A DNA stretch of 64,000 nt, taken from the NCBI GenBank assembly GCA_965248835.1, contig CBDFLJ010000001.1:384001-448000 (forward strand). Direction: 5' to 3'. The position numbers and the translations under genes are program-made. Shown in pieces: positions 60,853 to 64,000 of this stretch. The stretch's first letter is position 1. Each line of letters starts with the position of its first letter. This DNA is from Alphaproteobacteria bacterium. Its GTDB lineage: Bacteria; Pseudomonadota; Alphaproteobacteria; MPNO01. The notes below the pieces were generated by a model, which worked only from the letters and a program-made list of their open reading frames with translations, was not told the DNA's origin and did no database searches.

Positions 60853-61647
60853 ATGACCGAGCCGGTCTATGCGTTCTCCGCCGGCACGGCGCCCGTCCTG
60901 GTCAGCATCCCCCACGACGGCCGCCTGATCCCGCCGGAAATCGGCGGCCGCATGACCGGGGAAGCGCTGCGCATTCCCGATACCGACTGGCATGTCGGCC
61001 GGCTATACGATTTCGCCGGCATGATGGGCGCTTCGGTGCTGGCCGCGCGCTATTCGCGTTATGTCGTGGACCTCAACCGCAACCCCGCAGGCGAGGCGCT
61101 CTATCCCGGTGCGGACAATACCGAGATCGTGCCGTCCAGCACCTTTGACCGCGCGCCGATCTACCGCGCCGGCGAGGCGCCGGACGAGGCCGAGATCGCC
61201 GTGCGGGTGCGGGACTACTGGCAGCCCTACCACGACCGGCTCGGTACGGAGATCGCGGCGCTGAAGGACCGTTACGGGCGCGCCGTGGTCTTCGATGCTC
61301 ATTCGATCCGGTCGGTGGTGCCTCGGTTCTTCGAGGGCACGCTGCCGGATTTCAACTTCGGCACGGCATCGGGGGCCAGCGCCGATGCGGGACTGGCTGC
61401 GCGCGCGTTCGCGGTCCTGGATGCGGCTGCGGGCTACACGGCGGCCGACAACGGCCGGTTCACCGGCGGCTACATCACCCGGCGTTACGGCGCGCCAGAA
61501 GACGGCGTGCACGCGATCCAGCTCGAGCTGTCGCAGCGCACCTACATGGACGAGATCTATCCGTTCGACTACCGGCCCGATCTAGCCGGCACGGTGCAAC
61601 CGATCCTGCGCGACCTGCTGGCGGCGATTCTCGAATGGGCGGGATAA
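60853..61647 (+). CDS. hutG: N-formylglutamate deformylase
   Basis: SIPHDG, DTDWHV, SRYVVDLNR, DAHSI, GGYITR and HAIQLE motifs. Confidence 0.93.
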   Translation: MTEPVYAFSAGTAPVLVSIPHDGRLIPPEIGGRMTGEALRIPDTDWHVGRLYDFAGMMGASVLAARYSRYVVDLNRNPAGEALYPGADNTEIVPSSTFDRAPIYRAGEAPDEAEIAVRVRDYWQPYHDRLGTEIAALKDRYGRAVVFDAHSIRSVVPRFFEGTLPDFNFGTASGASADAGLAARAFAVLDAAAGYTAADNGRFTGGYITRRYGAPEDGVHAIQLELSQRTYMDEIYPFDYRPDLAGTVQPILRDLLAAILEWAG

Positions 61648-63008
61648 ACCGGAGCCTGACCTTCGCGCACCTGTCCACGCCCGACGGCTGGCTGTCGCCC
61701 GGCCGGGTGGATATCGAAGACGACGGAACGATCGCCGCGGTCGCGGCCGGCGATGCCGCGTTTGCGTTGCCCGGCACCGCGCTTGCCGGGATGCCCAACC
61801 TGCACAGTCACGCCTTTCAGCGGGCGATGGCTGGGCTCACCGAGCGGGCCGGCCCCGGCGAGGACAGCTTCTGGACTTGGCGCGAGGTGATGTACGGCTT
61901 CGTCGGCCGCCTCGAGCCCGAGGATGTCGAGGCGATCGCCGCACAGCTCTATGTCGAGATGCTCAAGGCCGGCTATACCGCGGTCGGCGAGTTCCACTAT
62001 CTCCACCACGACCGCGACGGCACGCCCTACGGCGATGTCGCGGAGATGGCCGGGCGCGTAACCGCCGCCGCGCGGCGCGCGGGGATCGCGATCACGCTGT
62101 TGCCGGTGCTCTACGATTCGGGTGGATTCGGCGGGGCGCCGCCGGCCGGGGAACAGCGCCGGTTCCTCAACGGTGCCGATCGGCTGCTGCGGATCATCGA
62201 GACCATGACGGAGCGCCACCGGACCGATGCCGAGGTGCGCGTCGGGCTCGCACCCCATAGCCTGCGCGCGGCGAGCCCTGCGGCGCTGGAGACCGCGATC
62301 GCGGGACTCGATGGCCTTGACCCGTCCGCGCCGATCCACATCCACATCGCCGAACAGACCAGGGAGGTCGAGGATTGCCTTGCGTGGTCGGGCAAGCGCC
62401 CCGTCGCCTGGCTGTTCGACAACCATCCCATCGGCCCGCGCTGGTGCCTGGTCCATGCTACCCACATCGATCCGGACGAGAGGCGCGCGCTGTCCGGAAG
62501 CGGCGCGGTCGCCGGCCTGTGTCCCACGACGGAGGCCAATCTCGGCGACGGCATCTTCCCGCTCCAGGCGTTCCTTGCCGATGGCGGCCGATTCGGCGTC
62601 GGCTCGGACAGCCACGTCTCGGTCAGCCCGGTCGAGGAGCTGCGCTGGCTCGAATACGCTCAGCGCCTGACCACGCGCCGCCGGACCGTAAGCGCACCGC
62701 CGGAAGGCTCGAACGGTGCGCGGCTCTATCATGAGGCGATATCGGCCGGCGCCCAGGCGCTGGGGCGTCGCGCCGGGGGCATCGCGCCGGGCAACCGCGC
62801 GGACATCATCGTCCTCGACCACGCCCACCCGCTGCTCGTCGGCAGAACCGGTGATCGATTGCTCGACAGCTACCTGTTCGCCGGCAACGAAAACCTGGTC
62901 CGCGACGTCATGGTCGGCGGCCGCTGGGTGGTGCGTGAGGGCCGGCACGAGAACGAGCAGCCGATCGCGCAAGCCTATCGCCGGGTGATTTCCCGGCTCT
63001 TCGGCTGA
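61635..63008 (+). CDS. hutF: Formimidoylglutamate deiminase
   Basis: PNLHSHAFQRAMAG, EFHYLHH, APHSLRA, HIHIAEQ and CPTTEANLGDG motifs. Confidence 0.95.
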   Translation: MGGINRSLTFAHLSTPDGWLSPGRVDIEDDGTIAAVAAGDAAFALPGTALAGMPNLHSHAFQRAMAGLTERAGPGEDSFWTWREVMYGFVGRLEPEDVEAIAAQLYVEMLKAGYTAVGEFHYLHHDRDGTPYGDVAEMAGRVTAAARRAGIAITLLPVLYDSGGFGGAPPAGEQRRFLNGADRLLRIIETMTERHRTDAEVRVGLAPHSLRAASPAALETAIAGLDGLDPSAPIHIHIAEQTREVEDCLAWSGKRPVAWLFDNHPIGPRWCLVHATHIDPDERRALSGSGAVAGLCPTTEANLGDGIFPLQAFLADGGRFGVGSDSHVSVSPVEELRWLEYAQRLTTRRRTVSAPPEGSNGARLYHEAISAGAQALGRRAGGIAPGNRADIIVLDHAHPLLVGRTGDRLLDSYLFAGNENLVRDVMVGGRWVVREGRHENEQPIAQAYRRVISRLFG

Positions 63009-63080: not shown

Positions 63081-63109
63081 TTGTCGAGGGAATTGATTGG
63101 CGGCATAAA
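63081..63109 (+). promoter_or_regulatory. Putative sigma70-type promoter of the small structured transcript
   Basis: (C)TTGTCG-N17-CATAAA in an AT-richer patch; transcription start predicted near 63116. Confidence 0.4.
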
Positions 63110-63146
63110 GGTCACCTCAATGCAACAACGGAAAGGAGGTGATCCA

Positions 63147-63218
63147 GTGTCTCATTGTCGCCAACCGCGGACGCGGGTGACCTGGGTCTCCACCTATCGG
63201 GGGCCGTCCGTCGCCTGA
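63147..63218 (+). CDS. Putative 23-aa small peptide MSHCRQPRTRVTWVSTYRGPSVA
   Basis: GTG start 6 nt after AGGAGGT; TGA at 63216-63218; an in-frame ATG also sits at 63120. Confidence 0.45.
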   Translation: MSHCRQPRTRVTWVSTYRGPSVA

Positions 63219-63258
63219 TGCGACGCTCGCGGACACTGCGTTCCGCGGTTAGACAATG

Positions 63259-63288
63259 TAAGGGCCGCCCGGTTACGGGCGGCCCTTA
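63259..63288. terminator. Probable bidirectional intrinsic terminator
   Basis: Perfect 13-bp stem TAAGGGCCGCCCG-gtta-CGGGCGGCCCTTA between convergent units; only a weak U tract. Confidence 0.75.
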
Positions 63289-63293
63289 TCATT

Positions 63294-64000
63294 TCAGGCC
63301 GCGGCCTTGGCCGCGATCATCGGCAGGGTGATGACCAGCAGCTCGGTGTCGGTTTCGGCGGCGAAGGTGAAGGTCTCGCCGGGGTCGAGCCGGATGGCGG
63401 TGTAGCGGCGGTAACCATCGCCCTCGCCTTGGGTGACGAAGATCAGCCTGCGGTCGGGCGAGGCGGAAAACGTCTCCGACGCCCCACGATCGATTGCGAA
63501 CTGGTCGAGCGCCATGCCGCGCTCCGAAAAACTGCCGAGCGGCTTGCCGCGGACACTGCTTTGGCCCGCGAGCGCCGACCAGGCGAAGTTCTGCGGCTGC
63601 ATCACCACCGGGCCCTTGAACCGCGGCGCGGGGTAGGCGACGGGTTTGCCCATCACTTTCTGCCAGATCGCCTCGTAGCCGTCCTGGTTGCGCCGTCCCT
63701 CGCCCGAACCGTTGCGGCGGAAGACACCGCCCTCGAAAGTCCCTTCGGCCTCAAGCGCGCCGTGGCCGGCCTTGACCTGTGAGCGGCTGAGATAGCCCTG
63801 GCCGCTCGCCCCGCCGAATTGGAGGACCAGGACCAGCCGGTCGCTGTCACCTTCCTGCGGACCGTAATGGACGCCCTCGGGGAAATAGCCCACCTCGCCG
63901 GCATCGATGGTCAGCCGCGGGGCGATCGGTACGCTGCCCTCGATGCAGAACCGCACCTGGTCCCACGGATGGCGGTGGCGCGGGGAGAAGAAGGACGCGC
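63294..64000 (-). CDS. Cupin-like protein (5' end outside the window)
   Basis: Frame open to the window edge: ...FFSPRHRHPWDQVRF..EG...GYFPEGVHYGPQ. Confidence 0.7.
   Translation of the reverse strand, partial: ASFFSPRHRHPWDQVRFCIEGSVPIAPRLTIDAGEVGYFPEGVHYGPQEGDSDRLVLVLQFGGASGQGYLSRSQVKAGHGALEAEGTFEGGVFRRNGSGEGRRNQDGYEAIWQKVMGKPVAYPAPRFKGPVVMQPQNFAWSALAGQSSVRGKPLGSFSERGMALDQFAIDRGASETFSASPDRRLIFVTQGEGDGYRRYTAIRLDPGETFTFAAETDTELLVITLPMIAAKAAA

Follow-up and report, generated by a model that had tools for sequence, protein, structure and literature searches.

By its match to a family model, the RNA element studied here is a member of the published rre/CC2171 family of tiny alphaproteobacterial mRNAs, and it is not new. 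It lies in a window of 64,000 nucleotides (the whole stretch of DNA that was analysed), and the main outcome for this window is a correct label, a known family instead of a new riboswitch-like element. We give a probability of about 0.6 to the reading that the element is a small, separately transcribed rre/CC2171 mRNA of approximately 175 nt in which a mask would form first and a more stable rod would later free the leader. An earlier note on this DNA had described five pairings, (i) to (v), around a strong Shine-Dalgarno (SD) sequence and had read them as a conformational switch with an internal mimic of the 16S rRNA tail, without recognising the known family. All five pairings are present in the sequence, and the set was correct and carefully drawn; the RNA itself was already known, and comparison with relatives indicates that three of the five helices are real and conserved. 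Among these three, helix (iv) and the P1 part of helix (i) are contained in the Rfam consensus, and helix (iii) fits the published rreB model.

RNAs of the rre/CC2171 family occur widely in Alphaproteobacteria and, according to the accessible text of Hahn et al. (RNA Biol 2016/17, PMC5711450), bind 30S very tightly in Bradyrhizobium. Our comparison adds that an internal copy of the 16S tail is kept across orders in different spellings and that, in the lineages with 21-27 codons, release of the leader by a competing rod is predicted to wait until the RNA is complete. Confirmation by probing would provide the first structural handle on how rre/CC2171 RNAs control their own ribosome access.

Family membership and layout of the locus

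A scan against Rfam returned one clear match, at 63123-63286 on the plus strand, to RF01867 ("CC2171 caulobacter sRNA"), with 102.1 bits compared with a gathering score of 75, an E-value of 2.7e-22, and model positions 1-159 of 159 covered. The family consensus begins with the letters cAAcaAucGAAAGGAGGUGAUCCAGUGUCUCAUuGuC, and the source genome holds 1 RF01867 copy. The element sits in a 285-nt intergenic gap, whose flanking genes are listed with the other features in Table 1. On the upstream side, the PF01979 amidohydrolase gene begins within an N-formylglutamate amidohydrolase gene (PF05013, E 4e-74; window 60853-63008 for the two); this gene pair directly upstream of the RNA looks like the histidine-utilisation type.

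Table 1. Positions of the element's features and of its flanking genes in the window
Feature	Position	Strand	Remark
Amidohydrolase gene	61635-63008	+	one flank of the gap; PF01979
Predicted sigma-70-type promoter	63081-63109	+	TTGTCG 63081-63086, 17-nt spacer, CATAAA 63104-63109
17c region (GAAAGGAGGTGATCCAG)	63131-63147	+	perfect complement of own 16S rRNA 3' tail
Short ORF, 23 codons, GTG to TGA (MSHCRQPRTRVTWVSTYRGPSVA)	63147-63218	+	
P1, 5' strand	63153-63159	+	codons 3-5; pairs with 63252-63258; in Rfam consensus
P2 and imperfect extension, 5' strand	63163-63182	+	pairs with 63231-63250
Internal 16S-tail mimic (anti-SD)	63176-63198	+	can pair with 63135-63151
Stop-codon hairpin, CGTCGC / GCGACG	63209-63225	+	5-nt loop with TGA; Rfam consensus
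P2 and extension, 3' strand	63231-63250	+	
P1, 3' strand	63252-63258	+	directly before terminator hairpin
GC-rich terminator hairpin and short U-rich tail	63259-63295 (hairpin 63259-63289)	+	conserved
Cupin-like gene, convergent	63294 onward	-	other flank of the gap

The predicted promoter implies a transcription start near 63114-63120. CTTGnn and CATAnn boxes, 17 nt apart, recur at a fixed upstream distance among 47 loci (judged by eye and uncounted); in the 70%-majority consensus of the 33 RNAs of alignment A1, the -35 box keeps one T only and the -10 box appears as lower-case "taaa". A simple consensus scan for promoters returned 0 sites on both strands here, and a simple terminator scan also returned 0 sites. 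In the RNA runs, about a tenth of the sampled words were found, and the contigs came from relatives and continued into unlike flanks.

The terminator hairpin comprises 13 pairs, 6 of them with compensatory changes in the RNAalifold analysis of 33 relatives. It is probably bidirectional, because it adjoins the stop codon of the convergent minus-strand gene. Its stem, GAAGGGCCGNCC...GGNCGGCCCUUC, is almost unchanged between orders, which exceeds the conservation that a terminator needs. A sub-threshold Rfam match to xerDC (window 63264-63380; 27 bits compared with 72.5, E 0.021) overlaps both the terminator and the convergent gene's end and probably arose by chance.

The 16S gene of the source genome (L055, 1563.6 bits with the bacterial SSU model) ends in ...CTGGATCACCTCCTTTCTA, and the 17c region is perfectly complementary to this tail over 17 nt, compared with an rre threshold of at least 16 nt of perfect complement to the organism's own 16S 3' end. 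A canonical AGGAGG lies within it at 63134-63139, and G 63147 serves as the complement's last base and as the GTG start's first. The region is invariant in 33/33 aligned relatives, and the 17-nt complement is part of the RF01867 consensus. A third exact copy of the 13-nt core of the 16S tail was noticed in the genome (L054, G000:C1:1388533-1388545); it is neither an rRNA gene nor an rre RNA, on its opposite strand the letters form an extended SD, and this copy matched no RNA family.

Across the class, members of the family were detected in 22 of 151 genomes (one genome per family), 6 of them over the Rfam threshold, and within the order in 58 of 78 genomes (37 over threshold) and 20 of 24 genera. 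We fetched 52 loci and used the 47 with GGAGGTGA at the expected place; L007, L011, L023, L041, and L048, which are without an exact GGAGGTGA there, were excluded from later counts. A pattern scan over one genome per species gave at least 119 loci, from Sphingomonadales, Rhodobacterales, Hyphomicrobiales, Acetobacteraceae, Caulobacterales, and others.

Two 14-codon loci of Bradyrhizobium (L154 and L174, each beside a tRNA gene) and an 18-codon, rreR-type locus of Dinoroseobacter (L161) match RF01867 end to end, with 40-42 bits and E-values of about 1e-6, under threshold; loci of Methylobacterium and Brevundimonas score 96.8 and 91.1 bits. Because the rreB- and rreR-type loci match the model from end to end, rre and CC2171 are, on these alignments, one superfamily, with the window RNA in its core. 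The accessible text of Hahn et al. places rreB beside a tRNA gene, names Caulobacterales, Rhizobiales, Rhodobacterales, and Rhodospirillales, alphaproteobacterial orders only, as carriers of rre, and leaves Rfam unmentioned (PMC5711450). Expression of CC2171 in Methylorubrum extorquens has been seen on a Northern blot, with no function given in the accessible part of that report (bioRxiv 10.1101/2022.01.24.477521). Later studies of how rre/CC2171 RNAs function or fold were not found in the literature searched; three citing papers, from the laboratory of the original report, deal with other subjects.

Two groups of loci stood apart. Three loci on contigs labelled as Burkholderiales or Bordetella MAGs (L103, L121, and L155) carry the same 17-nt leader and GTG start, with AGA as codon 2 and ORFs of 24-27 codons starting MRD(D/H/Q)QG; they may represent a separate rre-like group outside Alphaproteobacteria or binning errors. 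Two loci from Azospirillum MAGs (L127 and L167) have the same leader, an MSHG start, and a 59-60-codon ORF with a signal-peptide-like hydrophobic stretch. Azospirillum is described as atypical, plasmid-borne and with an ATG start, in the accessible text of Hahn et al. (PMC5711450).

Rod, mask, and order of folding

The rod proposed as helix (i) is built from two helices. In P1, CATTGTC and GACAATG are perfect complements, as are AACCGCGGA (63163-63171) and TCCGCGGTT (63242-63250) in P2, which continues into an extension (63172-63182 with 63231-63240) that is imperfect, as had been described. Folding agreed with the claim that, in the rod state, the SD and the start codon stay free and P1 begins at codon 3. 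The rod is also conserved in relatives, where P1 is paired and covarying and a long-range P2 recurs.

The seven perfect pairs of P1 are matched by 99.6% of cells paired among the 33 aligned relatives. We then exchanged P1 strands between RNAs, using 106 RNAs (90 distinct, 46 sequence types; L017 and L018 were omitted for their poorly defined terminators). Cognate duplexes had a mean of -8.56 kcal/mol compared with -5.04 kcal/mol for non-cognate ones, and 0 of 5000 permutations were as low. The compensatory versions of P1 include CAUGGUUCAGC/GCUGACCAUG and AGUAAGCUU/AAGCUUAC.

When P1 was enforced, 29 of 29 distinct interiors folded a long-range P2 between their first and last 24 nt, with a mean of 15.4 pairs compared with 5.7 in shuffles, 44% of which reach 6 pairs. 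The spellings of P2 are diverse (CCGCGG, GGCCUUCA/UGAAGGCC, CGGUCG/CGACCG, and GUGCGGUCC/GGACCGUGU), and on the MAFFT alignment just 65% of its cells are paired, which is partly an alignment matter. The same exchange performed on P2 gave a cognate mean of -25.2 kcal/mol compared with -20.3 kcal/mol, which we do not take as proof because many of the rows are close kin. The first and last of the four local hairpins that RF01867 draws have low posterior in the model alignment here, and two pairs of the first are non-canonical. From sequence comparison and folding, P2 is likely real, though unproven against these local hairpins.

Helix (iii), the mask, had been proposed from an internal stretch (63182-63198) said to match the 16S tail at 13 of 17 positions and to be able to occlude the SD. 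The match was reproduced, and the pairing of SD and mimic proved to be conserved. The mask pairs 13 leader bases and leaves GAAA 63131-63134 free as a predicted toehold; over these 13 pairs, 427 of 429 cells are paired in the relatives (99.5%), compared with at most 61.7% in slid controls. The RNAalifold consensus of the 33 relatives is the mask and not the rod, with the helix in columns 23-39. Five variable pairs shift only among G-C, G-U, and A-U, and three unpaired internal columns vary freely. The duplex of the SD with the downstream region has a predicted energy of -19.8 kcal/mol (z -2.1), which 7 of 200 shuffles equal.

Covariation in homologues, which the earlier note had named as a check, was borne out in part. 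It is found in P1 (46 types, 0/5000), and on the MAFFT alignment two-sided change in rod pairs is not above shuffles (95/500). The mask changes on one side only among the 33 relatives; two-sided covariation is not possible there because the leader is invariant, and a coding constraint on the mimic may also act, because the mask overlaps codons. In other orders, the mimic is spelled differently, as GGAGCAGCCUC, and has the same role. In L012 and L015 this GGAGCAGCCUC mimic occupies another frame, which points to selection at the level of the RNA.

A third conserved structure is the stop-codon hairpin, helix (iv), in which 63209-63214 pair with 63220-63225 and TGA 63216-63218 lies in the loop, as the pairing had been drawn.

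Rod and mask draw on the same bases. With the rod formed, the mimic bases fall in the extension of P2 and in a tip hairpin (63185-63191 with 63199-63205), and 11 of them (63178-79, 63181-82, and 63185-91) are paired elsewhere than in the mask; the two folds are therefore mutually exclusive alternatives, in agreement with the earlier claim. The further claim, that the SD is hidden early and exposed late, stood for the window RNA and most of its relatives as a prediction, whereas part of the wider family stays masked. All results on the switch are equilibrium predictions over nested structures (RNAfold), with the pseudoknot of P1 and mask lying outside the model.

In the window RNA, prefixes ending at 63192-63204 and at 63228-63240 are predicted to adopt the mask, and those ending from 63252 on adopt the rod. 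Among the 33 relatives, a mask probability above 0.5 was obtained for 31 with a prefix ending after the mimic, 18 with one ending after the stop hairpin, 2 once P1 was complete, and 3 at full length. When each state was enforced at full length, the rod was favored in 29/33, with a median advantage of 3.8 kcal/mol (range -1.6 to 10.6); the value for the window RNA is also 3.8 kcal/mol. These predictions point, short of proof, to an RNA whose ribosome-binding site is hidden at first and becomes exposed later.

The same data have to be weighed against an alternative in which the RNA belongs to the same family and has no temporal switch, one fold being the working one and the other minor or accidental. 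On this view, either the mask would persist until a 30S subunit entered by way of the GAAAG toehold, which is the proposal for rreB, or the rod would be the sole relevant structure. The published rreB model, in the accessible text, works without a second fold (PMC5711450). Even among the close relatives, the full-length ensembles are mixed, with a downstream-paired fraction of 0.00 to 0.83.

The wider family also speaks for this alternative. From the 117 loci listed, 61 were analysed, 56 having been dropped by three filters (codon 2 not TCN, an ORF above 35 codons, or a terminator score below 24). Among these matches listed, 53 were masked as prefixes and 25 of the 61 full-length RNAs keep the mask, including the Bradyrhizobium-type with 14 codons; in 32 the masking drops by over 0.3, and 4 are more masked at full length. 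Within the matches listed, masking persists in the 14-codon (rreB) type and in most members of the 18-codon types, L069 and L145 (sphingomonad-type) being exceptions. What weighs against a single working fold is that rod and mask are both conserved in the lineage of the window and that a change from mask to rod with increasing length is predicted in most of the 33 relatives. We regard a switch-free RNA as possible, if on the unlikely side.

Taken at the level of the models, masking would be a family trait, and release by the rod would at most characterise the lineages with 21-27 codons; within that limit, the switch idea is reasonable. The predicted cost of opening the leader here is 4.5 kcal/mol, so that masking may be of little weight at equilibrium, because this is small compared with a 17-bp duplex.

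The preferred reading, mask first and rod later, suggests the following course of events. While transcription is under way, the mask would precede the rod, its partner being synthesised about 35 nt past the start codon. Completion of the 3' half would then let the rod, as the more stable fold, draw the mimic off and free the leader. A 30S subunit could then bind the leader through the 17-bp duplex and would sit at a start codon abutting a stable helix, an arrangement that would give strong binding and poor translation. As a tentative and rather doubtful extension of this scheme, the rre RNA here might be a co-transcriptionally timed 30S trap, a ribosome-parking device or a sensor of free 30S and not mainly a template, with the masked state fixed in the 14- and 18-codon lineages.

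The short ORF and the remaining alternatives

Start codon, second codon, and stop codon of the ORF are under visible constraint. Among the 47 homologues, the start is GTG in 35, ATG in 10, and TTG in 2; codon 2 is TCN (Ser) in 46, with all four wobble bases occurring, and the ORF has 18-32 codons. In the wider scan, codon 2 is TCN in 107 of 117 readable loci among the matches listed, and these 117 ORFs fall mainly into groups of 14, 18, and 21-27 codons, their peptides being specific to clades. In 16/16 family-level relatives, the stop codon, TGA or TAG, occupies the same fixed place. The conserved start, Ser2, and stop signals therefore speak for initiation and termination by ribosomes at these sites.

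Selection on the peptide itself is not apparent. In the 16 family-level relatives used for the codon-position test, an excess of third-position changes is absent (of 23 sites each, 11, 10, and 7 vary at the first, second, and third codon positions), and the changes in the ORF mostly alter the residue. The peptides of different clades are unrelated. The 23-residue peptide, which contains four Arg and is without a hydrophobic stretch, had no Pfam match and no NCBIfam match at E up to 10.

These data bear on whether the locus is an ordinary small-protein gene, in which the 23-residue peptide would be the product that matters and the helices would tune its expression. The conserved start, Ser2, and in-frame stop fit such a gene, and so does the likeness of peptides within clades among the matches listed (MSHC...TW(V/I) here, MSHGSA... 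in sphingomonads, and a 14-residue type in Bradyrhizobium), a conservation also reported by Hahn et al. in the accessible text (PMC5711450). The missing third-position excess, the mostly non-synonymous changes, the unrelated peptides between clades, and the lack of a Pfam or NCBIfam family all speak against it. According to the same accessible text, synthetic RreB and RreR were unstructured and their overproduction was without phenotype (PMC5711450). We consider a small-protein gene unlikely.

Still less probable, in our view, is a non-coding base-pairing sRNA whose mimic would mask the SD sites of other mRNAs in trans and whose leader would serve as an internal lock. Rfam does file the family as an sRNA, and the mimic, which contains CCUC, is conserved across orders and out of frame in two lineages. 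However, most of the mimic is paired in both predicted folds, such a function leaves the conservation of the start codon and Ser2 unexplained, and the property measured for rreB, in the accessible text, is the binding of its leader to 30S (PMC5711450).

The other two pairings of the earlier note are exact in the sequence and not conserved. Pairing (ii), CAGTGTC 63145-63151 with GACACTG 63232-63238, had been proposed to cover the start codon; as a conserved start-codon mask we rejected it, because 53.3% of cells paired compared with 34-47% in slid controls is background. Pairing (v) joins AGGTCACC (63109-63116) to GGTGACCT (63176-63183) and had been offered as a 5' element that could also bind the SD. 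This 5' anti-SD was rejected as well: same-genus relatives have GGTGGCCTC and GGCTGCCTC there, and others lack the element. The duplex of the upstream segment with the leader has -15.9 kcal/mol here compared with -12.2 and -9.3 kcal/mol in two same-genus relatives. Element (v) overlaps the predicted -10 box and the predicted start, and most of it is probably absent from the RNA, because the predicted promoter puts the start near 63114-63120.

Folding energy compared with shuffled controls had been named as a further check, which the single sequence barely passes. The fold of 63100-63295 has a z of -6.9, much of which stems from two parts of that stretch, the terminator and a hairpin involving element (v), which is probably untranscribed. 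For the core, 63117-63259, z is -1.41, with 14 of 200 shuffles as good, and for the prefix 63117-63204 it is -0.85; the case rests on comparison. Although these two z values and the non-conservation of (ii) and (v) are what chance pairings in G+C-rich DNA would give, the family-wide Rfam match, the covariation of P1, the long-range P2 in 29/29 interiors, and the mask paired in 99.5% of cells refute that explanation for (i), (iii), and (iv), and for the helices as a whole it is almost certainly wrong.

Comparison with known systems

The closest counterparts are the rre mRNAs, which the accessible text of Hahn et al. describes as carrying 17 nt complementary to the 3' end of 16S rRNA, the initial G of GTG among them (PMC5711450). 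The window RNA is built in the same way, with the complement ending in the first base of GTG and a short ORF behind it, and, with its predicted promoter and terminator, it would resemble them as a small stand-alone transcript. For rreB, masking of the SD has been proposed, with a 5-nt single-stranded toehold and the remainder in a conserved hairpin (accessible text of PMC5711450); here too, the 3' part of the complement falls in a conserved predicted hairpin and a few 5' bases, GAAA, are free. The published RNAs differ in their ORFs: rreB (165 nt, Bradyrhizobiaceae) and rreR (Rhodobacterales) are small mRNAs of 14 and 18 codons, respectively (accessible text of PMC5711450), whereas the one here comprises 23 codons and encodes an unrelated peptide. 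A second difference from rreB is the long rod, which competes with the masking hairpin and is the predicted winner at full length.

The Caulobacter model RF01867 shares P1, the stop-codon hairpin, and the terminator in its consensus. In that consensus, the leader is unpaired save for a 2-bp hairpin, whereas the leader here can be masked according to prediction, and local hairpins are drawn where the window RNA and its relatives fold the long-range P2. Rfam treats the family as non-coding, whereas the window RNA has an ORF of 23 codons.

Sequential masking of the SD is known from the type I toxin mRNAs hok and aapA1 (Helicobacter pylori). These are small-ORF mRNAs with a strong helix that closes the 5' and 3' ends and with internal anti-SD elements whose formation follows the course of transcription. 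Once complete, these RNAs are masked and depend on processing; they encode a hydrophobic toxin and are accompanied by an antisense RNA. In outline, the window RNA is similar, with a closing helix and an internal anti-SD formed in order of transcription, as predicted here. Unlike type I toxins, its peptide is Arg-rich and without a hydrophobic stretch, and no antisense unit was seen here in a scan for promoter-like sites, which gave 0 on either strand.

The STAB-SD or SD-like 5' stabilisers of Bacillus (cry3A) offer another parallel. Their main effect is 30S binding and not efficient translation; the STAB-SD is without a functional start codon behind it and stabilises the RNA. The SD-like sequence of the rre RNAs resembles them in that its main effect is 30S binding rather than efficient translation, strong 30S binding and weak translation having been measured for rreB in Bradyrhizobium (B. 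japonicum) according to the accessible text of Hahn et al. (PMC5711450). Unlike the Bacillus elements, rreB lived longer when its start codon was replaced (accessible text of PMC5711450).
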